15,806 nucleotides of DNA from a virus. Lineage: Duplodnaviria > Heunggongvirae > Uroviricota > Caudoviricetes. The notes under the pieces are model-generated. The model was not told the DNA's origin. It saw nothing but the letters and a program-made list of their open reading frames with translations, and made no database searches. The position numbers and the translations under genes were made by a program. The DNA lies in the IMG/VR virus record IMGVR_UViG_643348547_000009; one strand, given 5' to 3'. Of this stretch, positions 2,288 through 15,806 are shown piece after piece; position 1 is the first letter of the stretch; each line of letters begins with the position of its first letter.

Positions 2288-3949
2288 TTACACCCCGCTA
2301 AATTCTTCCAGTTTCTGGCGGTGGCTGTCGCTTATATCAAAAGCAAAATCCTCATGCTCTGCCTGAAATGTACCAAACGCCATCAGTGCCGCTACGCTCG
2401 GGTCTATCTTGTTCGGTGATTTTTTCTTGTTCGGCTTGATATTGGCGTTCGCGTCACTCTGCATCACGACGTTACTCATCGACCAGGACAACACCGGATC
2501 GCCACGATGCACAATCACCCTGCGGTTAACAAAAACTTCGAACGATTTCGCCGCCGGACTGAATCTGAGGTAGGTTTGCGGGAACGGCTCCACCTCAAAG
2601 CCTGCCCCCTGTAATTGCGTTCTCAGGTGCGTGGCGTTCCACGTATCGAAGCCCACCAACCTGATATTAAATTTCTCGGCGTCCTGCATGATGTCATCTC
2701 TGATCCGGTCGTAATCAATGCAGTCGCCAGGCGTTGTGCATATCCAGCCCGCTTTAGCCCACTGGCGATAGACAGCGCGATTTTTATTGGCTGGGTTCTG
2801 TAGCTGGAACTCCGGCAGATAATGACGGGAAACCAGCATGATATTTTTACCGACCGGAAAGGCATAGCATACGCTGGAAATATCGCTGGTTGATGATAAG
2901 TCCAGCCCCGCGTAACACTCCTGACCGTGTAAATCTTCCTCCGTGAACGTTCCGGTACACTCAGCCCATGCACCATTACCCATCCACGGGGTAGTCCCCT
3001 GACACCAGATATTAAATCGCTTTGTCATCATCTCCACCCACTGCGACGGAATACCCCGCGCTTTCTGGATGGTTGAGGCCAGTTTTTCACGATCGACGGA
3101 AACATCGATGTTAGGGTTAGCCTTTATCCACATCGCCGGATCATCAACCTCGTTTTCGTCGTCCAGTTCGTAAATCAGTACAAAAATTGAATCGTTGACC
3201 TCTTCGCCGTCCAGGATCTGGCAGCAATAATCATAGTGCTGCTTACAGGCTGAAACGACGTTACTGCCCGATGTGGTAATGGCAAATAACAGCCCTTCGG
3301 GACGTGCGCCCATCCCCAGCTCAAGCGCGGAATAAACGCCGTTATCGGGGTGTAGGTGGTATTCGTCCACGATAGAAAGACTGGGGTTTGTCCCCTCGAT
3401 GGTTGCTGCTTTTGCTGCCAGCGGCTTTAACAGGCTGTTGCTTTTCGGGTGTATCACCTTATGCGCCTGAATATTCACCCGCCTGCGTAACGGTCGGGAT
3501 AAAAGGCACATCTGACGCGCATCATCAAAGACGATCCGCGCCTGGTCACGGCTCACCGCTGCGGTGTAGATATCCTGCTGACCGTTCTCCATAATCAGAA
3601 ACCAGTTAGCCAGAATCGCGGCGGTCGTGGATTTCGCATTTTTGCGCGGCACTTCGATAAAGGCGCTCGTGTATTTGCGCCGTCCGGTGGCCTTAACCTT
3701 AAAGCCGAGGATGCACGCAAAGGCGAACTGCTGCCACGGCTCCAGCTCAATGGGTCTGCCACGCATCGGTCCTTTTACGTGCGGGCACACCCTGGAAAAG
3801 GCAATAAACCGCTCCACAACCTCACGATCGAACGTGTAAAGGGGGCTTTTAAGGTCCGAAAAGTACCGTTTAACAGCCTGTTTTAACCGTTTACAGGCCG
3901 GAATTTTGCCCGTTTTTACGTCTTCTGCGTACTTATTCCAGGCGGTCAA
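2288..3949 (-). CDS. Phage terminase large subunit (553 aa)
   Basis: Walker-A-like PRKNAKST in the N-terminal ATPase region and an acidic nuclease-type C-terminal half; follows TerS directly. Start is TTG at 3949 with a GAGGA Shine-Dalgarno 5 nt upstream and overlaps the TerS 3' end by 17 nt; there is no in-frame ATG nearby. Confidence 0.88.
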   Translation of the reverse strand: MTAWNKYAEDVKTGKIPACKRLKQAVKRYFSDLKSPLYTFDREVVERFIAFSRVCPHVKGPMRGRPIELEPWQQFAFACILGFKVKATGRRKYTSAFIEVPRKNAKSTTAAILANWFLIMENGQQDIYTAAVSRDQARIVFDDARQMCLLSRPLRRRVNIQAHKVIHPKSNSLLKPLAAKAATIEGTNPSLSIVDEYHLHPDNGVYSALELGMGARPEGLLFAITTSGSNVVSACKQHYDYCCQILDGEEVNDSIFVLIYELDDENEVDDPAMWIKANPNIDVSVDREKLASTIQKARGIPSQWVEMMTKRFNIWCQGTTPWMGNGAWAECTGTFTEEDLHGQECYAGLDLSSTSDISSVCYAFPVGKNIMLVSRHYLPEFQLQNPANKNRAVYRQWAKAGWICTTPGDCIDYDRIRDDIMQDAEKFNIRLVGFDTWNATHLRTQLQGAGFEVEPFPQTYLRFSPAAKSFEVFVNRRVIVHRGDPVLSWSMSNVVMQSDANANIKPNKKKSPNKIDPSVAALMAFGTFQAEHEDFAFDISDSHRQKLEEFSGV

Positions 3950-4289
3950 GCTCGTCCTCTTCTTCTGTTTCCGGTGGATTTTTACGGCGGCTTATCGGGT
4001 CAAAACCGAGCAAGGAGGCCATTTTTATCATCACTCTTTCAGCGTCGGATTTTGCGCTTAATGCGGGGTTTCTGCTCTCGCCGCCCTGACTGTTAACAAT
4101 GCTGAACCCGCGCGCCGCAAGGTCTGCAACGGCTTTCCGGTAAATGGAGTAGTTGACGCAATACAGTTCCAGATTGCTCCAGTCGGCGGGGGTCAGGTCT
4201 CCCCGTTCCGCAAGCTGCCGCGATTTTTCCCGCCACTGCTTCACGGCGATATCATCCAGGTAGGCGGGGGCTTTCGGTGGTCTTGCCAT
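3933..4289 (-). CDS. Phage terminase small subunit, P27-like (118 aa)
   Basis: Small protein immediately upstream of and overlapping TerL, with an acidic C-terminal tail (ETEEEDELDRLE). The sequence resembles P27-family TerS as I remember it. Confidence 0.75.
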   Translation of the reverse strand: MARPPKAPAYLDDIAVKQWREKSRQLAERGDLTPADWSNLELYCVNYSIYRKAVADLAARGFSIVNSQGGESRNPALSAKSDAERVMIKMASLLGFDPISRRKNPPETEEEDELDRLE

Positions 4290-4340
4290 GCTTATTTTTC
4301 GTCAGATTATTTTTCAAAAAATTCCCGTGCATAAAAATTT

Positions 4341-4400
4341 GGGGAGGCGGTCGGTGCCCGGCGGGGTCGGGTTTGTCCTGAAAACGCCCCCCACCCCGTC
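4341..4400. other. Candidate cos / packaging recognition site in the HNH-TerS intergenic region
   Basis: GC-rich tract ggggaggcggtcggtgcccggcggggtcgggtttgtcctgaaaacgccccccaccccgtc, with a G-rich left end and a C-rich right end in inverted symmetry, lying between HNH and TerS where HNH-dependent cos sites usually sit. The first 10 nt (GGGGAGGCGG) resemble the start of the P2-type cohesive end GGCGAGGCGG, which I recall from memory. Confidence 0.35.
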
Positions 4401-4577
4401 ATACAGCCTCATCAGCGATTGCGGAAACATTCCATAACCTCGCGGTCACGGTCGGTTAATCGCTTCGCTGTGATGCGTTCTGCGCGTCCTGACGCTTTAT
4501 CTTTATGCCCTGTTTCCTGTGTCTTCCATGCGTCACGCTGCCTTATAAGTCCACGGATAAGGCGGTTTTGTTCCCGC

Positions 4578-5018
4578 TCATTCATCAGCGTCATACATCC
4601 AGTTATTGCGGTTAGCGGCCCGTTCTTCCTCTTCACGAAATCCACCTGCGGCACGCTTGCTTTTTGTTGCCGGATCAAGCCATTTCGTTTTCTGGTTATG
4701 GCACGCCTGACACAATGGTTGATGGTTCCATTCGGGCCAGAAGAGAACATCATCACCGCCATCGATGGGGATAATGTGATCCACCACCACGGCGGGCGTA
4801 TATATCCCCTTCTCAAGGCATCGCACGCATAACGGGTTTTTACTCAGATACATGGCGCGGTATTTGTCCCACTGTCTGGAGTACCCACGCGCGCGGCGGT
4901 GTCCTCGTCTGGCATCCTCTGCACGCCATGCCGCCCGCCTGTGCTCCTCACACTTGCCGGACTTCACGCGCCTGTTACAGCCTGGTTCTGTGCATCGTCT
5001 TAATGGTTGCCACGGCAT
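4578..5018 (-). CDS. HNH endonuclease, phage packaging-associated (146 aa)
   Basis: HNH-type motifs CVRCLEKG, VDHIIPIDGG and CQACHNQK; sits directly upstream of TerS as in HK97-like HNH/terminase systems. ATG at 5018 overlaps the stop of the upstream gene (ATGA). Confidence 0.85.
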   Translation of the reverse strand: MPWQPLRRCTEPGCNRRVKSGKCEEHRRAAWRAEDARRGHRRARGYSRQWDKYRAMYLSKNPLCVRCLEKGIYTPAVVVDHIIPIDGGDDVLFWPEWNHQPLCQACHNQKTKWLDPATKSKRAAGGFREEEERAANRNNWMYDADE

Positions 5019-5314
5019 CAGTACACCCCCACATCACGATAAACCGACCAGAGCATCCCTACAGCCAGCGGGATTTCTTTTGTGTCTCCATCCCCGACCG
5101 TGGCCCTGTATTCGTACAGTTGCGACACGTACATCATGCAGCCAATCTTTATGGCTGGCGTGAACTCCAGCCCGTCATCAAAGCGCCTGCCGATGTGTTT
5201 CTGGCACACCTCAAGCGCGGCGGCGATGTATCCGCTGATTAACTGGTCTTCCTCATTGCCATCAATGCGGCAATGGAGTTTCACTTCTTCCAGGGTGATT
5301 AATTCTGCTGTCAT
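5018..5314 (-). CDS. Head-tail connector protein, gp6-like (98 aa)
   Basis: N-terminal LEEVKLHCRIDGNEEDQLISGYIAAA pattern typical of gp6-like connector proteins; start and stop overlap neighbours by ATGA. Confidence 0.7.
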   Translation of the reverse strand: MTAELITLEEVKLHCRIDGNEEDQLISGYIAAALEVCQKHIGRRFDDGLEFTPAIKIGCMMYVSQLYEYRATVGDGDTKEIPLAVGMLWSVYRDVGVY

Positions 5315-5649
5315 CGTGGCGCACCTGTTTTACAAAGAATTTCCAGACGAGTCCTTTTACCGTCGGGAACGGGGGGGCCAACAATATCAAGCTCATTGCC
5401 GGAATAAGCCCCCGTGAGTACCCGTATCCGGCTGGATGCCGTAACATCCACACGAAAACGGATCCAGACTCTTACGGTTGCCTGTGCCGTTTCTGCACCT
5501 GCGGTCATGCGTTCCCGTCCGCTGATCCCTTTCACCTCCGCCCATACGGTGGCAACATCCTCCCATGTGCTTTTCATTGCACCGGAAGGGAGGCGGGAAA
5601 GTTTCGCGCTCATGATGACAATGCGATCCCTCATGCTCCCCGCTCTCAT
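5311..5649 (-). CDS. Phage head closure / head-tail joining protein (112 aa)
   Basis: Size, position between portal and connector, and resemblance to the head closure protein family; ATGA overlap with the portal stop. Confidence 0.68.
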   Translation of the reverse strand: MRAGSMRDRIVIMSAKLSRLPSGAMKSTWEDVATVWAEVKGISGRERMTAGAETAQATVRVWIRFRVDVTASSRIRVLTGAYSGNELDIVGPPVPDGKRTRLEILCKTGAPR

Positions 5650-6860
5650 GATTTGCCCTCTTTATCATCCTTTACTTCGATCTCCTGTTTCCAGGCCTGG
5701 CTGAACTCATCGCCACCATCACGCGGCGATAATCCCTCACGTTCGCGGGCTTCGTTCGGGCACATAACGCCGGACTTGATGCCGCGTTCATAGGTGGCAA
5801 AGCGTTCGCCAGGTGTGGCCCGTAACAGATCCGCGCTGTCAAACTCCACCTGATACCGGATACCAGGTACAGGCGAGGCCACCAGCAAAGCATTTTTTAT
5901 CTGCTGCTCAAAGTTCGCCAGCCACGGGCGCATCGTCATGGTGAGAAATGCGCGGCTTGCCTCGCTGAAATTGCTGTAGGTGCTGTTGCTGTATTCCTGC
6001 AGAAAAATCGGCGAGACGTTGAACATTCGGGCGATGTCTTCAATGGTGAAGCGACGGGAGGCCAGCCATTCAGCATCCTGGTTACTCATGCCAAGCTGCT
6101 GATAGCTCATACCCCCTTCAAGAATGGGCGTTTTTCCGGCGTTTCTGGCTCCTTTGTAGCGTTCCAGTGCGGCTAATGCCTGTTTGCCCTTCACGCCGTC
6201 CAGCCATTCGCCTGACGTGATAACCCCTGCTGCCATCATGCCATCACGCATCACGCTCGCGCCGTGGCGCTGTTGGGCCAGCCCAAGCCCCAGCGATTCG
6301 CGGCAGATGGTCACAGGTGAGCGCCCCATAAAGCCGTCATCCGTGGAGTAACGAAGGTGGAGAACCTCCCACGGTAAATAGTTGCGGGTGTTTCCGCTGT
6401 AAGCGTCAGTGATGCGGTAACGCCAGTTATGTTCCCCTGTCTGCTCAACATTCACCGACTGCGGCGGGTAAGGGTGCAAAGCCACTGGAAAACCATCACG
6501 CCCCCACTGAATCACCGCATAAGCATTACCGTTTAACAGGCAGTGGCGGACCATCATTCGCTTAAACTGATAGGGCGTCTGCCACGCGTTCGGGCGCTCG
6601 TTGAGGATATGATCGACCGGATGAGAATCAAGCCACTCGCGGGCCTCCTTCCCCTTCTCATTGCGTACCAGGTACAGGTAGCATGGCATAGTAGCCACCG
6701 CCTCAGAGATGACCGTGACGGCGTTCATGACGGCGGGGAGTGATTCCGCTGTCCCCGATGATACGTACTCACCCGCCCCCGTGTTCGATGTGCCAGCCAG
6801 CGCCATAAATTCATCCAGCGTCATGCTGCGATGCTCTTGTTTTCGTCTGAAAGGCCACAT
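5646..6860 (-). CDS. Phage portal protein, HK97 family (404 aa)
   Basis: About 400 aa protein adjacent to the prohead protease with an acidic C-terminal tail; GGGGG Shine-Dalgarno about 6 nt upstream of the ATG at 6860. Confidence 0.88.
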   Translation of the reverse strand: MWPFRRKQEHRSMTLDEFMALAGTSNTGAGEYVSSGTAESLPAVMNAVTVISEAVATMPCYLYLVRNEKGKEAREWLDSHPVDHILNERPNAWQTPYQFKRMMVRHCLLNGNAYAVIQWGRDGFPVALHPYPPQSVNVEQTGEHNWRYRITDAYSGNTRNYLPWEVLHLRYSTDDGFMGRSPVTICRESLGLGLAQQRHGASVMRDGMMAAGVITSGEWLDGVKGKQALAALERYKGARNAGKTPILEGGMSYQQLGMSNQDAEWLASRRFTIEDIARMFNVSPIFLQEYSNSTYSNFSEASRAFLTMTMRPWLANFEQQIKNALLVASPVPGIRYQVEFDSADLLRATPGERFATYERGIKSGVMCPNEAREREGLSPRDGGDEFSQAWKQEIEVKDDKEGKS

Positions 6861-6861
6861 A

Positions 6862-7437
6862 TCACACCCCCGCTAAATCCGCCCACCAGCGGCGATTATC
6901 CGCGCGTGGCATTTTTTCGGGGTGCTGCTCATACAGGGAACGGCGGGCCAGATCCACGCCGGAATCAGGGTAAGCCGGTACGGATGTAACGGTAATTTCG
7001 TACAGTTCCGCCACCAGCACGGTGCGCACGCATGGATCTGTTGTGGTATCCCATACATCCTTACGGGAACGAAAGCCAAAGCTCATCCCCGAGATATCAC
7101 CACGCTTAACCAGTTCGATAACGTCCCGCCCTGTACTGGTATCCGGTGGGGTCAGTTCAAAGCGTAACCCTGTTTCATCCTCTTCCAGTTTCAGCGTACC
7201 GGAACGGGTACGCCCCAGTAACATGCTGTGGTCGTGCTCATACAGGCCGCGAACGTCATTACCCGCCGCCAGCCACTCACTGAACGCCCCCCGCTGGAAT
7301 TTTTCGTAAAACTCACCCCATAGCAGATCAGAAAGGTTATTCCAGCGAACAACGTAACCCGTCAGCGTACTGGCTCCGCTGGTGGTGATTTCTGATGACC
7401 GGATTTCCATGCTCTTTTTCATATTTTTTTCACCCAT
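6862..7437 (-). CDS. HK97-family prohead protease (191 aa; start may instead be the ATG at 7422)
   Basis: Conserved protease-family segments LYEHDHS, GRTRSGTL and GMSFGF. The ATG at 7437 has no good Shine-Dalgarno; the in-frame ATG at 7422 has GGTGA about 9 nt upstream. Confidence 0.85.
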   Translation of the reverse strand: MGEKNMKKSMEIRSSEITTSGASTLTGYVVRWNNLSDLLWGEFYEKFQRGAFSEWLAAGNDVRGLYEHDHSMLLGRTRSGTLKLEEDETGLRFELTPPDTSTGRDVIELVKRGDISGMSFGFRSRKDVWDTTTDPCVRTVLVAELYEITVTSVPAYPDSGVDLARRSLYEQHPEKMPRADNRRWWADLAGV

Positions 7438-7445
7438 AAAACACC

Positions 7446-7468
7446 AAAGGGGCTTTTTAGCCCCTTTT
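7446..7468 (-). terminator. Stem-loop plus U-rich tract between the capsid and protease genes (candidate attenuator)
   Basis: Inverted repeat AAAGGGGC / GCCCCTTT (8 bp stem, 6 nt loop) 4 nt after the capsid stop; on the minus strand it is followed by GGTGTTTT and then the protease ATG. Confidence 0.4.
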
Positions 7469-7472
7469 TCTG

Positions 7473-8645
7473 TTAACCGCCGTTTTTCATCTCGAGGACT
7501 TTTATCGCGCGGGAGTCAACAACCCCGCCGCCGATGTATTTGTCCGTGTGTACCTTGTAGAAACCCGGCTCTGTAATGTTGTCCGGTCGGGTACGAATAC
7601 CCGTTTCATGGTCAACGATGAAATAACCGCGCTTAAAGTCACCGACAGCCAGCGGCGTTTTGCCTTTGCCGATGTCCGGCATACTTTCCAGGTAATAAAC
7701 AGGACGGCCCAGCAATGTGTCAGGTGCGCCCTCTTTGAGGCTGTCACGCCATACGTAATCACCGCTCTGGTTTTTCAGCTTCTGCAATGCTGCCGCTGTG
7801 CTCGAGTTCATCACCCATACGGCGTTCTTACGGTATTTCGCTTTCAGCTTGTAGAGGATGTCGATCAGTTCGTCCGCTGTAATGGCGGCTTCGGCTGCTG
7901 CTACCATTTTTTCAATGGTGCCAAAGGCGCGGGTTTTGTCGTTGGTTAGATCTCGGTTGTAACTCAGGAAACCTTTCGGCTTGCCAGTACCATTACCATT
8001 TACAAAATCATCTTCTTCGGTCGTGGCGAACGTATCGGCGATTTCAGACGATAACCAGCCCAGTACGTCCACCTCTGAAAAATCCAGAATTTCCTGTGTG
8101 GTTTTCGGGTAGGCATAGATCGGGTTAAGTTTGATGCTTACGCGCTCAACTTTCGGGGTGTTGGTTTCGTTACGCTTGCTGCCCTCGGTTCCATAATTTA
8201 CAGCCGCGCCACCTGTGGAAACCAGTTTCTGATATTCGTTTGATTTCGCCGTTTTCACGGTCGCAATCATTCGCATGACGCTTTCATCACTCAGTAACCG
8301 CATGACCTCGCGATCAAGCTCAGGGATAACGGTATAGCCACCGTCCTTGCCGCTGTTGCTAGTGGTGGATAATGAGCGAACGTCACCCGTTACGATGTAA
8401 TTGCGAAGTTCTGCGGGGTCAGTGGTCTGGCTGGCTTTACCTGGCTTGCTGCGCTCTTCGTCTGCAATGGCTTCAAGGCGGGAAATGTCTTTATCGAGGG
8501 ATTCAGCTTTAGCGCGTAATTCGTCAAATTTTGCGCCCTCAGCATCGTTAAGACTGCGGTTTTCTTTTTCCGCGTTCTCCAGCATGTCGCGCATCTGATT
8601 TTTAATGGCGGTTTTCTGCTGGCGTAATTCGATTATTCTCGGCAT
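7473..8645 (-). CDS. Major capsid protein, HK97 fold (390 aa)
   Basis: N-terminal coiled-coil scaffold-like delta domain (ELRQQKTAIKNQMRDMLENAEKE...), about 390 aa, adjacent to the prohead protease; ATG at 8645. Confidence 0.92.
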   Translation of the reverse strand: MPRIIELRQQKTAIKNQMRDMLENAEKENRSLNDAEGAKFDELRAKAESLDKDISRLEAIADEERSKPGKASQTTDPAELRNYIVTGDVRSLSTTSNSGKDGGYTVIPELDREVMRLLSDESVMRMIATVKTAKSNEYQKLVSTGGAAVNYGTEGSKRNETNTPKVERVSIKLNPIYAYPKTTQEILDFSEVDVLGWLSSEIADTFATTEEDDFVNGNGTGKPKGFLSYNRDLTNDKTRAFGTIEKMVAAAEAAITADELIDILYKLKAKYRKNAVWVMNSSTAAALQKLKNQSGDYVWRDSLKEGAPDTLLGRPVYYLESMPDIGKGKTPLAVGDFKRGYFIVDHETGIRTRPDNITEPGFYKVHTDKYIGGGVVDSRAIKVLEMKNGG

Positions 8646-10167: not shown

Positions 10168-11916
10168 TTATAAAAACGCGTCGCAATCGTCTGTTGTTAT
10201 TGCGTTAGTCTGCGTTACTCCCTTAACTTTCCGCGTAATATATTCATGTCCGTAAACTTTCGCGGCTGGCTTCATAGCCTTGCCAAAGTCATTTACGTTT
10301 AGCGGTTTGCTCCTGCCTGCGTATGCCATAAACGCCAGATAGACGCGGTAAAGGCTGTTTCTGGTCGTGTACTTCACTGAATCGCCACCGCCACCCATCA
10401 TCAGGCCGCGCGCTTCCTCCAGAAAATTCAGGAACTGGCAAAACTCAATAACCGGATCCGTCTGTTGCTTTATTGCCAGTGCTTCATCACCGTCACGCTG
10501 TTCCAGTAGTAAAGCCCGTGCCTTCTCAGGGTCGGTAAAGTTCGCCAGCAAGCGGCGGATAATGACAGGGATTTCAGCCGCGATCTTTTCCGGTAGCTCC
10601 CTGTCTTTTTCTGCCTCGCTTACGATATTGTCGAAGCGGAAAATAACCCGACGACGTGACACGCCTCCGGCCCGTTCGGTGAATATCATCGGGTTGTTAT
10701 TGGTCGCCAGCACCACCGCCCTGATTACCGTAGTGAAACGCTTTTCATATTTCGGGTTGATTTCCACGGGGTCGCCGCCCGTGATTTTCTTGATGCCCGT
10801 GCCTTCGCCTGTATATTTCGGCTGGTCTGCCAGGACGATAAGACGACTCCCGACAACCTGCGCACGCCCACCAGCATCATCAAGCGATGTCATTTCCGCG
10901 CTTACCGTGTTTTGTTTCCCCGCTAAAAGGCTGGCGATGTGGGTGAATGTACTTTTGCCGCTCCCGCCGTCTCCGGTGGCCTCAATAAACATCTGCCAGT
11001 CGTACCGGTTCGCCATAATCATGTACAGCGCGGCACATATACGCATCATCTTGCGCGAGTCTTTTCCGGCTGCGTGCTCAAGCCATTTATGAAAGTTTGG
11101 CGCGTTATCGCGGATGTTCTCCCCTGGTGCTGGTGGCGTGTACTCAATGCCGTTGTTCGTGGTGATCCAGTTCTCCGGCGTGTGCGGGGAAAATTCCCCC
11201 GTTTTCAGGTCAAGCGCACCATTGGCGAACGGCAGCAAATCGCCGGACGGCTCGCCCATTGGTTCGGCAATAACTTTTAACGCTTCCACGGCGTTATTGA
11301 TTACGCGCTTGCTGAAAGTGGCCCTGTGCTCTGAATAGATCGCCACCATTTCGCGGCTAAGTTCCATTGTGCTGACCGGACACCATACCCCGCCGCGCCA
11401 TACGTGAACGATTTCACTTTCCGGATGCACACAAACGCCATCAAATCGACCAGCAAGCATCTGTGCGCGCTCACTGTCTGCCATTTGTGCCAGTTGCGTA
11501 TTTTTCTGCTCCGGCATGGTAAGCCCTGCGGCAATATTTTCACGCTCAGCATTCAGATAGCGCCGCCAGTTTTCACACTTCTGGACGTGCATTCCTTCGG
11601 GGTAAAAATTTGCGTCCTGAATATCTGCCGCCGCCAGCTTCTGACCAATCTTTTTGGTCTCCACCAAATCCAGTTCTCCGGCCTGGTACAGCCTTACGCG
11701 TTTTTTTCCATCCGGAACAATTTTCAGTGCATCAAGTTCGGCAAGCTGATTTGGCCCAAGCCACACAGGCGGCACATTATCGCCGGATGCGGGGCCATCC
11801 TGCTCCTGCCATTGTTTCGCGTGCGACCAGGCATCACTACCCGCGAAAATAATTACCTCTGTGTCTTTGTGTTTTATTCCGCGTGGCTGTTTTTTTACGT
11901 TCGGTGCCAGTTTCAT
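10168..11916 (-). CDS. Phage/plasmid primase-helicase, P4 family (582 aa)
   Basis: Walker A motif GDGGSGKST in the C-terminal NTPase domain and a primase-like N-terminal half; ATG at 11916 with an AGGGG Shine-Dalgarno; followed by the iteron region. Confidence 0.88.
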   Translation of the reverse strand: MKLAPNVKKQPRGIKHKDTEVIIFAGSDAWSHAKQWQEQDGPASGDNVPPVWLGPNQLAELDALKIVPDGKKRVRLYQAGELDLVETKKIGQKLAAADIQDANFYPEGMHVQKCENWRRYLNAERENIAAGLTMPEQKNTQLAQMADSERAQMLAGRFDGVCVHPESEIVHVWRGGVWCPVSTMELSREMVAIYSEHRATFSKRVINNAVEALKVIAEPMGEPSGDLLPFANGALDLKTGEFSPHTPENWITTNNGIEYTPPAPGENIRDNAPNFHKWLEHAAGKDSRKMMRICAALYMIMANRYDWQMFIEATGDGGSGKSTFTHIASLLAGKQNTVSAEMTSLDDAGGRAQVVGSRLIVLADQPKYTGEGTGIKKITGGDPVEINPKYEKRFTTVIRAVVLATNNNPMIFTERAGGVSRRRVIFRFDNIVSEAEKDRELPEKIAAEIPVIIRRLLANFTDPEKARALLLEQRDGDEALAIKQQTDPVIEFCQFLNFLEEARGLMMGGGGDSVKYTTRNSLYRVYLAFMAYAGRSKPLNVNDFGKAMKPAAKVYGHEYITRKVKGVTQTNAITTDDCDAFL

Positions 11917-12217: not shown

Positions 12218-12445
12218 TTATTCTCCGGTGTGCTGCGCTTTATTATTCTCGTGAATTGCCATCACTGTATTTAATTCATTAATAACAGGCGTTAATAGCG
12301 TACGCACGGCAGAAAACATCATTGAATCAGATTCATCGCCACTTTCCGGCACATCAATTAACTTAAGTAGTAATGCGTCCATTTCCTTTGCGCGGATTAA
12401 TGCGTTTTCAGAATGAACAAGAACATCAAAGGGTATTTTATGCAT
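12218..12445 (-). CDS. Hypothetical 75 aa protein
   Basis: ATG at 12445 preceded by AGGGGGGGA; start overlaps the last codons of the upstream Icd-like ORF (ATGCATAA). The longer 109 aa reading in the ORF track has no Shine-Dalgarno. Confidence 0.5.
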   Translation of the reverse strand: MHKIPFDVLVHSENALIRAKEMDALLLKLIDVPESGDESDSMMFSAVRTLLTPVINELNTVMAIHENNKAQHTGE

Positions 12446-12902
12446 GACTCCCCCCCTGGCGAATACGGGCGACAAAAATAAGATGTGCGTGCGGCAGCTG
12501 TGCACGTGCTTCGCGCTCAGTGGCAGCGGTAACGGTGAATATTGCAATACTGTCTGTCAGGCACTGCATAAAGCGCCAGACAAAATAAGGGCGTGCGAAT
12601 ACAGCCATGTGAAAGGCTCCCAGATGAATTTTAAGGAGTCTCGCTACTACGCTGCTAAACATGGTGGCGAGACGTAACAGGGTTAGCAGACTGGTCATCT
12701 GGAAACCAGCGAGCACAAAGGCTCCCCCGTTACGCCCCGCCATAATGCGGGTATGGGTAGGTTTACGGACACAAAAAAACCGCTTATCGGATGTGGGCGG
12801 CTGTCCGCCAGATGTATTCAGGCTGCTAAACCCGGTCGCCATGTGGGCGACGGGGGAAGCATACAGCCCCGTGATAATTTTTTGCAAGCGGTTTTTACGC
12901 AT
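12438..12902 (-). CDS. Icd-like (P4 cell-division-inhibitor family) domain protein, copy 1; full ORF is 154 aa, and an internal start at 12608 would give 56 aa
   Basis: C-terminal WRF...ATEREARAQ...FVARIRQGGSHA is paralogous to the C-terminus of copy 2. The ATG at 12902 has an AGGGG Shine-Dalgarno and overlaps the copy 2 stop; the ATG at 12608 has a GGGAG Shine-Dalgarno. Confidence 0.45.
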   Translation of the reverse strand: MRKNRLQKIITGLYASPVAHMATGFSSLNTSGGQPPTSDKRFFCVRKPTHTRIMAGRNGGAFVLAGFQMTSLLTLLRLATMFSSVVARLLKIHLGAFHMAVFARPYFVWRFMQCLTDSIAIFTVTAATEREARAQLPHAHLIFVARIRQGGSHA

Positions 12903-13098
12903 GATGTGACCCCTGACGAATACGGGCGGCGAATACCATCACGCAGCCAGCCGGGGATTGCTGGCGTGCCTCCTGTTCGCTGGTGGCCTCAATGGTAATC
13001 ACGCGCGGTTGTGCCGTGCTCAGGGCGATAAAACGCCAGATGTATTTATTCAGGTTGTGCGAATCCCGCCCTTGCGGGTGTGTGGTATGATTTAACAT
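12895..13098 (-). CDS. Icd-like small protein, copy 2 (67 aa)
   Basis: ATG at 13098 with GAGG 5 nt upstream; ...KYIWRF...ATSEQEARQQ...FAARIRQGSHHA. The long upstream in-frame extension (353 aa ORF) is Cys/Arg-rich and antisense to plus-strand genes, so it is treated as non-coding. Confidence 0.5.
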   Translation of the reverse strand: MLNHTTHPQGRDSHNLNKYIWRFIALSTAQPRVITIEATSEQEARQQSPAGCVMVFAARIRQGSHHA

Positions 13099-13192
13099 AG
13101 CTACCTCGATACTTTCGCTATCGTTGGTGGTTAGAAGCCCCGTTACTGCTCCTACAGTGCGGGGTTTCGTCGTTTCTACACCTTGCCTTAAT

Positions 13193-13249
13193 AAGGTGTT
13201 GAACACCAATTTAAATCGAGGTGTTAAACACGTCAAGTGTTGAACACTT
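13193..13249. promoter_or_regulatory. Three palindromic operator-like sites GTGTT-N-AACAC in the divergent control region
   Basis: GGTGTTgAACACC at 13195-13207, GTGTTaAACAC at 13221-13231, and the perfect 15 bp site AAGTGTTgAACACTT at 13235-13249; centres are spaced 25 and 16 bp apart. Confidence 0.55.
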
Positions 13250-13268
13250 ATTTTTTTTCCTGCATACT
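13240..13268 (+). promoter_or_regulatory. Candidate sigma70 promoter for the plus-strand RHH gene, overlapping operator 3
   Basis: TTGAAC at 13240-13245, a 17 bp spacer containing a T8 run, and CATACT at 13263-13268, about 30 nt upstream of the ATG at 13298. Confidence 0.3.
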
Positions 13269-13297
13269 GCATTTGTTTTTTATGAAGGGTGCTCAAC

Positions 13298-13477
13298 ATG
13301 GCGACAAAAGCAGTAAACGCAAAATCACAAACAGTTGCGGCAAGGGTTCCACATGAAGTTATGAACAATGTTGAGGCGGTAAAAATGCCCGGCGAAAGTA
13401 CAGGGCAGTTTGTTACAGCTGCATTAAAGCGGGAAGTTGAATACCGCCAGCGTCGCAAGGCCAAAGAATCAGAATAA
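13298..13477 (+). CDS. Small ribbon-helix-helix-like DNA-binding protein (59 aa), candidate island regulator
   Basis: ATG at 13298 (the ORF track starts at an upstream GTG at 13289); AAGGG 9 nt upstream. The pattern ARVPHEVMNNVEAV...GESTGQFVTAALKREV fits a beta-strand, helix, helix (Arc/CopG-like) layout. Confidence 0.5.
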   Translation: MATKAVNAKSQTVAARVPHEVMNNVEAVKMPGESTGQFVTAALKREVEYRQRRKAKESE

Positions 13478-13534
13478 TCACTATCAGCGCCGTGGCGTGA
13501 GGTACTCCGGCGCATTGCTTTACAGGTCAGTACT

Positions 13535-13744
13535 ATGAGCAAAAAACACCGATCAGCAGATGAGATTTTTGCAGAACAACGAAGATTGCTTTTGCAAAGT
13601 ATCATTTCACGCCAGCAAGAGAAGGCGCGAGCTAAACAAATGCCACCAAATACAGAACCAGCGCCTACAAGATTTGCGCTTGATGACTTTCTCGATAAAC
13701 ACCCCAGGGTAATGAAAGCAAACAAAAACCGCCCACCAGGCTGA
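13535..13744 (+). CDS. Hypothetical 69 aa basic protein, second gene of the plus-strand module
   Basis: ATG at 13535 with a weak Shine-Dalgarno; co-directional with the RHH gene and followed by a strong terminator; no family recognised. Confidence 0.35.
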   Translation: MSKKHRSADEIFAEQRRLLLQSIISRQQEKARAKQMPPNTEPAPTRFALDDFLDKHPRVMKANKNRPPG

Positions 13745-13839
13745 TCACATTGCCCACCAGCCTGATAGCGGCTATCATCCCCGTGCTTATGTTTGAGATC
13801 ACACACACAAACGGCGCAGCGGGTTATCTGTTCAGAAAG

Positions 13840-13870
13840 GCGGCTCCATTTCGGGGCCGCTTTTTTTATT
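13840..13870 (+). terminator. Rho-independent terminator of the plus-strand module
   Basis: GCGGCTCC-atttc-GGGGCCGC (8 bp stem with one G-U pair) followed by TTTTTTTATT. Confidence 0.6.
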
Positions 13871-14013
13871 CCTGAAAAACCCCAATTTTGTTGTTTTTCA
13901 GTTTCACCAGGGCGAACGAATCCCCGCCCACGTTCTGGCGTATATTCAATCTTCATGGTTATAGCTCTGTGTTCAGATGATTGATGTGTGGCGGCTGCGT
14001 GCCGCCAGCGTGA

Positions 14014-14202
14014 TTAATGAACTGCCTTGCAGCTATCCTTCCAGGCCAGAACCTCGGATAAAGACCAGCCAACGGAACGACCGCCAAGTTTACGACGTGA
14101 TGGGAATTGTCCGGCCTTTTCCAGGCGGTAGCGACACGTACGGCTAAGGCCGGTTAGTTTTTCGCATTCTTTTTCACGTATAAACCGATCAGTGCTTAAC
14201 AC
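14014..14202 (-). CDS. alpA: AlpA-family phage transcriptional regulator (62 aa)
   Basis: HTH segment LTGLSRTCRYRLEKAGQFPSRRKLGGRSVGWSLSEVLAW typical of the AlpA family; GTG start at 14202 with an AAGGGGG Shine-Dalgarno 5 nt upstream; immediately downstream of int. Confidence 0.8.
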   Translation of the reverse strand: MLSTDRFIREKECEKLTGLSRTCRYRLEKAGQFPSRRKLGGRSVGWSLSEVLAWKDSCKAVH

Positions 14203-14576: not shown

Positions 14577-15806
14577 TTATTTTCTTCTGGCTACTGGTAG
14601 CGTGGTTACGTTTTCATGTGTTCCCGCCAGTATCCCTAACCGCTCCGTCCACATATCCAGCGCATTGCGTTTAGCATCCAGATAACGGGAATGATTATAA
14701 ACTCGCTGCATTCCTGGCATCTGGTGGCCTGTAAGCTGCTCCACGACGTGAGGATCCACGCCTAAATCGCTCAGCATCGTTGTAAAGGTGCGCCGGATGT
14801 CATGTAGTGACCAGTGAGGGTGATTTAGCCTCCTGTGCGCTAATCTGCCGTACTGCGACACGCTTGTTTCCTGTTTCACTTCCCCCAGCAATAAGCCCGT
14901 GTGCCTGTTCTGCTCCACCAGCTGCGTGACGAACGGCAGTATTGCTTCCGGTATGGGCCGGAATATTGCCACCTTCGTTTTGCTGTGTTCTTTCGGCACG
15001 GTCCAGAGCATTTCGGTAAAATCCCACTCGCTGATCTCCGATAACCTCAGTTCTACCGTCCGGCATCCGAACACAATCAGGAGGCGGATTAACGCGATGT
15101 AGTAGGGGGAGAATATTTTTTTGTCCAGTGCCTGCAATAATTCGCCCAGTTCTTTGGTGCTTAAGACACGCTCGCTTATATCCGGTTTTTTCCCAACGTC
15201 CGCCACACTCATATCATCAAGAACGTTGCTGATTGCATAGCGCCGCCTCCGGCAGAACTTAAGCGCCTGTTTGCACGTCTGTAGCAAGAATCCGGCAGTA
15301 ACAGGCGTTCGCTTTGCCACCTGGTCAAAACAGGCCAGCCAGTGCCGTAGCTCGCATTTATCCAGCGGCATAGCACCAATGTGCTGTATTACGTGATTAT
15401 TAAGGCGCTTTTTCAGGGCGGCATAATCCACGCGGTTTTCCTTTGCGTACGACTCAAGCCAGTAGGTGAGCGCATCGCCAACCGTTACCGGCTTTAACGC
15501 TTCCTGTACGGTGTAATTAAGCTCATGACGTGGATTTTTCCCCTCTGCCAGCCATGCGCGACACTGGGCGGCTTTTTCCCTGGCTGATTTCAGGCTCAGA
15601 TCAGGATAATTTCCCAGCTTAATGCGTTCCGGTGGTGCCCCCCTTCCCGTTCCGGCCCTGTAAGTGAAATACCAGGTTAAAAGGCCACTGGTTGAATGCC
15701 TGACGCTCAGGTTTCCACCGTCATTAAGAAAGGCTGTTTTTTGGGCGGGTGTGCCGTTGATTTTCCTCAGCTGTGTATCGCTCAGTTTGTTAAGTGCTCT
15801 GCTCAT
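14577..15806 (-). CDS. int: Site-specific tyrosine integrase, P4-type (409 aa)
   Basis: ATG is formed by the last three bases of the window. N-terminal arm-binding-like domain, and a C-terminal catalytic region (...HDIRRTFTT...YNHSRYLD) consistent with the tyrosine recombinase R/H/R/Y arrangement. Confidence 0.93.
   Translation of the reverse strand: MSRALNKLSDTQLRKINGTPAQKTAFLNDGGNLSVRHSTSGLLTWYFTYRAGTGRGAPPERIKLGNYPDLSLKSAREKAAQCRAWLAEGKNPRHELNYTVQEALKPVTVGDALTYWLESYAKENRVDYAALKKRLNNHVIQHIGAMPLDKCELRHWLACFDQVAKRTPVTAGFLLQTCKQALKFCRRRRYAISNVLDDMSVADVGKKPDISERVLSTKELGELLQALDKKIFSPYYIALIRLLIVFGCRTVELRLSEISEWDFTEMLWTVPKEHSKTKVAIFRPIPEAILPFVTQLVEQNRHTGLLLGEVKQETSVSQYGRLAHRRLNHPHWSLHDIRRTFTTMLSDLGVDPHVVEQLTGHQMPGMQRVYNHSRYLDAKRNALDMWTERLGILAGTHENVTTLPVARRK

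Follow-up and report, generated by a model that had tools for sequence, protein, structure and literature searches.

A predicted autoregulated RHH repressor and its candidate operators at a divergent promoter region of a capsid-forming PICI

Results

Gene content of the island

The DNA analyzed here (hereafter the window) is the whole 15,806-nt stretch of IMG/VR record IMGVR_UViG_643348547_000009. It begins with phoQ (1-1461), and the remainder is a capsid-forming PICI (cf-PICI). On the minus strand, genes for TerL, TerS, an HNH protein, a head-tail connector, a head-completion protein, the portal, a prohead protease and the major capsid protein (2288-8645) are followed by genes for SSB, a D5-type primase and a DUF4222 protein (Pfam; 10168-11916). 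Farther on lie alpA and a tyrosine integrase gene, also on the minus strand (Table 1). Pfam searches found int, AlpA, a primase and the island's own capsid and packaging genes, and no tail genes, which is the gene content of a cf-PICI. E. coli islands at the phoQ/roxA site share 90-97% identity with the window, the island L001 accounting for 90-96%, and the O157 Sakai island, which occupies the same roxA/phoQ site, is 97.4% identical to it over the int-alpA segment.

Two plus-strand genes, one encoding a 59-aa protein of the YlcI/YnfO family (ylcI) and the other, ORF69, lying 3′ of it, converge on alpA. ORF69 matched no Pfam or NCBIfam family. The ORFs found after ylcI in E. coli loci (the window, L001, L004, L005 and L042) belong to different families and matched nothing in Pfam or NCBIfam; they have a common FAL(D/E)xFL motif. 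Between ORF69 and alpA is a strong hairpin with an A-tract and a T-tract, which was missed by a simple terminator scan. Judging from its sequence, it should serve as the terminator of the ylcI-ORF69 transcript, and as a weaker one for the converging alpA transcript.

Table 1. Features of the divergent promoter region and its surroundings (window positions)
Feature	Positions	Strand	Remarks
C4 antisense RNA	12660-12747	-	Rfam RF01695, 72.7 bits (gathering score 45)
IsrK-like element	terminator end near 12773	-	Rfam
a1b1-type target	12815-12864	-	RF03163, 45.5 bits, just below gathering score of 46.7
Icd-like gene	12895-13098	-	first leftward gene, 67 aa; NF033153, 69.8 bits
Structured 5′ leader of P_L transcript	13099-13198	-	
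Leader hairpin H3	13107-13123	-	small, beside ribosome-binding site
Leader motif UCUAACCAC	13126-13137	-	conserved single-stranded motif, invariant
Leader hairpin H2	13138-13164	-	two-part
Leader hairpin H1	13179-13198	-	5′ hairpin, adjoins O1
O1, GGTGTTGAACACC	13195-13207		13-bp palindrome over predicted P_L start point (~13201)
P_L	13208-13236	-	-35 TTGACG (13236-13231), 17-bp spacer, -10 TAAATT (13213-13208); sigma-70, 9/12 in promoter scan
O2, GTGTTAAACAC	13221-13231		11-bp palindrome; occupies P_L -35/-10 spacer, touching the -35
O3, AAGTGTTGAACACTT	13235-13249		perfect 15-bp palindrome; overlaps -35 of P_R
P_R (candidate, RHH gene)	13240-13268	+	TTGAAC (13240-13245), 17 bp, CATACT (13263-13268); 8/12
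ylcI, RHH gene	13298-13477	+	59-aa YlcI/YnfO-family protein, proposed repressor; predicted recognition strand at variable residues 11-15 (QTVAA)
ORF69	13535-13744	+	69 aa, 3′ of RHH gene; variable or absent in related loci
Hairpin with A-tract and T-tract	13834-13867		-21.7 kcal/mol, then TTTTTTT on plus strand
alpA	14014-14202	-	activator/excisionase-type regulator; PF05930, E 5e-17; converges on ylcI cassette
Tyrosine integrase	14577-15806	-	Pfam

Dyad sites and promoters upstream of ylcI

A sequence-only reading of the window had placed three inverted-repeat sites between a plus-strand RHH gene and minus-strand Icd-like genes, the last site being a perfect 15-bp palindrome that overlaps a candidate -35 element. 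All of this was borne out: direct reading and a pattern search of the 15.8-kb window found three exact GTGTTNAACAC matches (13196-13206, 13221-13231 and 13237-13247), the third extends to the 15-bp palindrome O3, the TTGAAC hexamer lies within O3, and ylcI and the Icd-like gene flank the sites on the strands proposed. When one mismatch was allowed, the whole window contained four matches against 0.45 expected, a count that was reached by none of 200 dinucleotide-preserving shuffles. These data support O1, O2 and O3 as predicted operators in a divergent promoter region. The centre-to-centre spacings of O1-O2 (25 bp) and O2-O3 (16 bp) put the sites off one helix face and so give no indication of cooperative binding.

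Two further candidates were rejected. The fourth match, GTGCTTAACAC at 14192-14202, carries one mismatch and covers the first alpA codons and the GTG start; the same sequence is found in the Sakai island, which lacks both the sites and the YlcI protein, and the match is therefore probably due to chance. A weak candidate at 13288-13298, which has two mismatches and covers the start codon of ylcI, was not kept in L001 or in L006.

P_L was the sole promoter reported by the promoter scan; P_R, with a weak -35, fell below its threshold. Related loci were collected both from complete genomes of E. coli and from a bacteria-wide set with a single genome for each species, covering Escherichia, Edwardsiella, Pectobacterium, Kosakonia, Dryocola, Yokenella, Limnobaculum, Serratia, Xenorhabdus, Proteus, Tenebrionibacter, Klebsiella and other genera. 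When 30 of these loci were aligned on the end of O2, the -35 of P_L was TTGACG in 22 and conformed to TTGAnn in all 30, while a -10 of the form TAnnnT followed after 17-18 bp in 28. The sequence xTCAA adjoined O2 in 30 of 30 loci, a counterpart of O1 was found in 29, and in 26 the ATG lay exactly 66 nt from where O2 ends. At the offset equivalent to the -10 of P_R, TATACT was present in 20 loci and CATACT in five. The layout as a whole, with one site in the spacer, one on the P_L start point and one at the RHH promoter, was near-fixed among ~33 related loci in at least 12 genera. The third site lies downstream of the P_R -10 in most specificity classes and on the -35 in the class to which the window belongs.

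The 59-aa protein as a probable member of the RHH fold

The 59-aa protein matched the NCBIfam model for YlcI/YnfO (NF041551) over residues 9-50 with 59.7 bits (cut-off 30; E 2e-16), and its orthologues are labeled as YlcI/YnfO family in RefSeq as well. An AlphaFold2 model built with 35 homologues (mean pLDDT 80.9) consisted of two helices (residues 19-28 and 35-58), and its closest structural matches were the RHH antitoxins TacA, CopA, HicB and ParD. In the family alignment, K9, S10, R16, H19 and G32-E33-S34 were invariant and T35 was present in at least 90% of sequences; G32-E33-S34 provides the G-x-S/T turn of RHH proteins at the start of helix 2. The residues expected to form the strand show the RHH kind of polarity pattern, with positions 13 and 17 hydrophobic and positions 11, 12, 14 and 15 variable. 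Variation within the family clusters at residues 11-15, which are flanked by the invariant K9-S10 and R16, and this is the position at which RHH proteins carry their DNA-reading strand. No match to the Pfam RHH families was obtained at E values up to 10 for the window protein or any of 35 members, and sequence and profile searches of the PDB with the 59-aa protein returned only designed cages and nothing relevant. Modeling thus agreed with the RHH assignment made in the sequence-only reading, and we regard the fold as well supported yet not complete, since the strand is unformed in the monomer model.

The family of this type is small (81 clusters at 50% identity). Matches to the ylcI/operator region were found in 1,208 of 5,426 complete E. 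coli genomes, with at least 80% query coverage in 569. A tblastn search of 50,697 phage records with the RHH protein found no homologue, Pfam and NCBIfam profiles found no cleavage or ligand domain in it, and a literature search on the function of YlcI/YnfO, on RHH proteins in PICIs and on PICI repressors and operators found nothing relevant.

The YlcI of E. coli K-12 MG1655 (L038; prophage DLP12, 580251-580445) has an RHH-like sequence pattern and its gene is divergent from nohD, presumably with the cos region adjacent. No comparable repeated dyads were found upstream of K-12 ylcI, so that the operator logic described here is not extendable to namesakes in the family, and the role of K-12 YlcI may differ from that of the island protein.

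The structural matches invite comparison with toxin-antitoxin systems. RHH antitoxins of the CopG, TacA, HicB and ParD kinds resemble the 59-aa protein in fold, in size and in having palindromes in their own promoters; here, however, no conserved toxin partner is present and most of the operators lie on the divergent promoter. The RHH protein and the product of the small ORF that follows its gene in E. coli loci could in principle be an addiction pair which the dyads merely autoregulate, and the RHH family that replaces YlcI in EDL933-type islands (see below) is indeed labeled 'HicB family antitoxin'. We nevertheless consider such a pair very unlikely: the downstream ORF comes in three or more unrelated types, is missing from Xenorhabdus and from a number of further loci, and has no Pfam or NCBIfam match, and two of the three sites are on the divergent promoter instead of the RHH gene's own.

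Covariation of operators with the predicted recognition strand

Comparison of the related loci distinguished at least 11 operator classes (Table 2), the operators of L013, L016 and L031 having been assigned by eye and checked against the sequence. Each class goes with a particular set of residues at positions 11-15 of the RHH protein, and none goes with AlpA, the Icd-like protein or the downstream ORF. Allowing one mismatch, each locus's own operator occurred 75 times in the intergenic windows of ~145 nt, as against twice in ~230 kb of flanking sequence. Among the 351 pairs formed by 27 loci, operator and strand were both the same in 57 and both different in 289, the operator alone differed in one and the strand alone in four, and operator distance was correlated with RHH residues 1-16 (Mantel r = 0.65, a value reached in none of 2000 permutations); both the pair counts and the Mantel p overstate independence, because descent and recombination link the loci to one another.

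Table 2. Residues 11-15 of the RHH protein and the operator found with them
Residues 11-15	Operator	Occurrence
QT[VLI]AA	GTGTTGAACAC	Escherichia, Edwardsiella, Pectobacterium, Kosakonia
[KR]KLEA	GTGTCAGCCAC	KKLEA in Escherichia, Pectobacterium, Xenorhabdus
KR[IF]D[AV]	GTGTCGGACAC	
Q[SA]LK[SA]	GTGTGGCCCAC	Dryocola, Yokenella, EcCICFT073
QK[LV]Q[AT]	GTGGA[CG]TCCAC	
QKIQA	CTGGATTCCAG	
QKMSA	CTGGCACCCAG	
QMTTV	GTGAAATACAC	
QKTSV	GTGnnGGACAC	
QSLTA	GTnnCTTACAC	
AQKKI	longer, GGTG-N-CAC type	

The argument for predicted binding rests instead on mosaic cases. In some, the same strand and operator occur with an unrelated AlpA in other genera; in others, the neighbors are near-identical while strand and operator are both different. 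AlpA identity is only 10-30% between loci that share an operator and 94-97% between Xenorhabdus loci that do not, and the Icd-like protein is near-invariant across loci whose operators differ. Because the residues of the β-strand covary with the operator sequence, the RHH protein is pointed to as the predicted binder of the sites.

Two observations concern individual loci. In L006 (Edwardsiella hoshinae NBRC 105699), which belongs to another family of the Enterobacterales, YlcI is identical to that of the window over residues 1-57 and the same three operators are present, together with an unrelated AlpA (20% identity); this combination would fit intergeneric spread of islands or exchange of the module between them. 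In L024, L029 and L031, the protein starts with MTRD.. or MSDN.. and not with MATK.., and the outer pair of the operator is C..G and not G..C, which suggests that an N-terminal arm may read the outermost operator position.

The same comparisons bear on whether the dyads are sites for another protein, namely AlpA (as activator of the early operon), the replication protein (as iterons) or the Icd-like protein. AlpA is a known activator of Gram-negative PICIs (PMC6092414), and PHROGs names Icd-like families 'transcriptional repressor'. AlpA, however, showed no association with the operator (r = 0.10, p = 0.19), and the O157 Sakai island, in which the AlpA sequence is identical to that of the window, has no GTGTTNAACAC sites and no YlcI homologue. 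The Icd-like protein does not vary with operator class, loci that both encode DUF927-type replicases differ in their operators, and the sites lie within promoters and do not adjoin the replicase gene. It is thus extremely improbable that any of the three is the cognate protein.

A protein that binds these sites need not be a repressor, since binding is predicted from covariation and the sign of regulation from position only. The RHH protein might act as an activator, as an architectural or roadblock factor, or as a regulator of its own operon only, and O3 is situated at about -41 from the predicted P_L start, a position used by some activators. We hold these roles to be unlikely. A site in the spacer and another on the start point of P_L, in all classes, form the classical arrangement for steric repression, and the third site is in most classes at +1 of P_R and not upstream of P_L. 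Repression by the RHH protein fits the sites in the promoter spacer, on the start point and in its own promoter.

The leftward transcript

The predicted P_L transcript opens with a structured 5′ leader of three hairpins and an invariant single-stranded motif (Table 1). Compensatory changes were found in 13 of the 15 pairs tested, across at least 10 genera, and the observed values were reached by none of 500 shuffles, the main hairpin having been specified by hand before its pairs were counted (RNAalifold alone missed it). The signal collapsed in slid controls, and no Rfam family matched the leader. Because the pairs of the leader RNA covary, they provide independent evidence that transcription probably begins at the operators and proceeds leftward, and that it is under selection. 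Read in the same sense, the UCUAACCAC motif of the leader is similar to the single-stranded antisense element found farther downstream in the C4 RNA.

The leader is followed by the Icd-like gene and then by a C4 RNA above the Rfam gathering score, an a1b1-type target and an IsrK-like element; C4 RNA, target site and icd-like ORF together make up a C4 module of the P1 immI type. All three RNA elements lie inside a 154-aa ORF (12438-12902) whose orthologues are called 'Icd-like' in RefSeq. Its Icd-like domain spans residues 107-149, and since the match is limited to the last ~50 residues, this ORF is probably over-called. Matches to C4 and isrK in Gram-negative PICIs have been noted previously, without the RHH/operator module (PMC10111431).

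An open frame of 353 codons on the minus strand (12895-13956) extends from near alpA, antisense to ORF69 and ylcI, through the operators and into the Icd-like gene, and its N-terminal part is the 247-aa 'hypothetical protein' of the Sakai island. This frame is probably not a gene, though its uninterrupted antisense length is odd.

Cassettes in EcCICFT073 and in the O157 Sakai island

A ylcI cassette is also present at the phoQ/roxA site in the prototype island EcCICFT073 (L041/L042; strain CFT073, NC_004431.1, 1380242-1381052). Its YlcI-family protein carries the sequence KSQALKARV, GTGTGGCCCAC occurs twice at P_L, and a third site follows TATACT. Gram-negative PICIs are induced through AlpA (PMC6092414; for cf-PICIs, bioRxiv 10.1101/2022.09.08.507074). 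In EcCICFT073, over-expression of AlpA alone induces the island with no phage present, deletion of alpA abolishes induction, and helper phages raise alpA transcription; the same founding paper called it 'unclear' whether a repressor exists in Gram-negative PICIs, and the contrast with Gram-positive PICIs a mystery (PMC6092414). As EcCICFT073 has the cassette and yet is induced by AlpA alone, the RHH protein is not the sole gate of induction, and any repression by it would be subordinate to AlpA, without which the island is dead and by which it is fully induced. Since the prototype carries the cassette, it may have been part of the reporter constructs already published, which extend from alpA to 'ORF3'.

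These findings weigh on the idea that the RHH protein is a master repressor in the sense of SaPI Stl or lambda CI, inactivated by a helper protein and with AlpA acting downstream. Operator and promoter geometry and the covariation speak for it just as they do for a repressor alongside AlpA, and the many specificity classes resemble those of immunity regions. It is made doubtful by the phage-free induction of the cassette-bearing EcCICFT073 and by the fact that helper phages act on alpA transcription (PMC6092414). There is no Cro-like partner either, the 59 residues contain neither a cleavage nor a ligand domain, and no RHH homologue was found among the phage records searched.

From its site and its host, we infer that the Sakai island is EcCIEDL933. 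The slot occupied by ylcI in the window holds here an unannotated ORF for a 63-aa RHH-like protein (L037:3588-3779, plus strand). The protein scored 20.4 bits against HicB (cut-off 21) and also matched Arc, TraJ and RelB, all below threshold; of its 54 database homologues, those with a name are called 'HicB family antitoxin'. Two GGTGACCAC repeats flank the ORF, one of them adjoining a TTGACA. RefSeq calls the 247-aa ORF over it on the opposite (minus) strand; this call is probably spurious and masks an RHH gene. Going by these sequences, the slot seems to be occupied by RHH proteins of more than one family.

Discussion

The computational results of this work are the sites and their non-randomness, the geometry of the promoters, the fold of the protein, its covariation with the operators, and a conserved leader RNA. 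The best explanation of these observations, to which we assign a probability of about 0.65, is that the 59-aa RHH protein represses the leftward early promoter as well as its own transcription, alongside AlpA. For binding and its stoichiometry, for the sign of regulation and for the way in which derepression comes about, we infer the following. One RHH dimer would bind each GTGTT-N-AACAC dyad, at all three sites. Occupancy of O2 in the promoter spacer and of O1 on the start point would block RNA polymerase at P_L, from which the structured leader, the Icd-like genes, the C4 RNA, the DUF4222 gene, the primase gene and probably further downstream genes would be transcribed, and a dimer on O3, which overlies the -35 of the RHH gene's promoter, would bring about negative autoregulation. 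The RHH module would in this way keep an internal early promoter silent in the quiescent island, and its specificity classes would amount to 'immunity types' of the satellite.

Such a repressor would not replace AlpA; events that depend on AlpA would override it or switch it off. Our preferred guess is that converging alpA transcription would run into or across the ylcI cassette and that replication would then titrate the repressor. This idea is complicated by the fairly strong terminator predicted at 13834-13867, between alpA and the cassette. An AlpA of Pseudomonas is reportedly an antiterminator, which would fit read-through and is a lead, not evidence. AlpA or a helper protein might also relieve repression by antagonizing the RHH protein directly.

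In the sequence-only reading, the layout was likened to the lambda OR region and a repressor-controlled induction switch was suggested. The second proposal is supported by the divergent sites, the covariation with the RHH protein and the repression-like positions, and fails as regards a sole gate of induction, given the behavior of EcCICFT073. The lambda analogy does not hold as a mechanism. Three operators between divergent promoters, one of them on the regulator's own promoter, do recall OR; however, the fold is another one, no second antagonistic regulator of the Cro kind is present (the first leftward gene is Icd-like and invariant across operator classes), the 59-aa protein has no domain for RecA-stimulated self-cleavage, and there is no sign of bistability through operator occupancy. 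With two of its defining features absent, this is not a lambda-type CI/Cro switch.

In function, the module appears closest to two phage systems, the control of P22 immI by Arc and Mnt and that of P1 immI by a promoter plus C4. In P22 immI, the RHH repressors Arc and Mnt act at the divergent Pant and Pmnt promoters. Small RHH repressors there bind dyads over back-to-back divergent promoters in a mobile element, with autoregulation and repression of an early operon on the lytic side, features that are predicted for the island as well. There is no detectable sequence relation between the two, however, and the island has one regulator and three separate dyads of 11-15 bp, whereas P22 has two regulators and single operators of 17-21 bp; the controlled operon starts with an Icd-like gene and a C4 RNA here and with ant in P22. 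The C4-family RNA, a1b1-type target and Icd-like ORFs are shared in kind with P1 immI (c4-icd-ant), the P4 CI RNA and Gifsy-1 IsrK. The P1 promoter is under the C1 repressor, whereas a RHH protein with its own operators is predicted here, and the window has no ant gene.

Stl and Rpr, the master repressors of SaPIs and other Gram-positive PICIs, are larger helix-turn-helix proteins, whereas the candidate repressor here is a 59-aa RHH protein. They are described as a sole gate lifted by helper proteins, whereas AlpA is epistatic here. As in SaPIs and other Gram-positive PICIs, the repressor gene lies between the integration module and a divergent replication operon (PMC6092414). In those islands, however, int is co-directional with the repressor gene, while int and alpA converge on ylcI here.

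It may tentatively be proposed, as a broader and rather less likely picture, that YlcI-like RHH proteins (in EcCICFT073 and this island) and HicB/Arc-like RHH proteins (in EcCIEDL933-type islands) are the dedicated repressors of Gram-negative PICIs, laboratory prototypes included. The slot between alpA and the replication operon would then hold fast-diversifying proteins, each matched to its own operators and defining an immunity group of satellites, and would form with the alpA unit a two-promoter bistable switch that sets the threshold of induction.

RHH repressors with dyad operators are of a well-known kind. What is new is a predicted RHH/operator module in Gram-negative PICIs, in many matched classes, and a function proposed for a subfamily of YlcI/YnfO. 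The predicted pairs of protein and operator specificity (Table 2) can be checked by swaps, and matched sets of small repressors and operators could be orthogonal parts for synthetic biology. The O157 island, in which an RHH gene lies under a probably spurious 247-aa ORF, illustrates how annotation hides such genes. Mutants and reporters are already available for EcCICFT073, which carries the cassette, and the question of a repressor in Gram-negative PICIs becomes directly testable, with a concrete function proposed for the uncharacterized YlcI/YnfO-like family.
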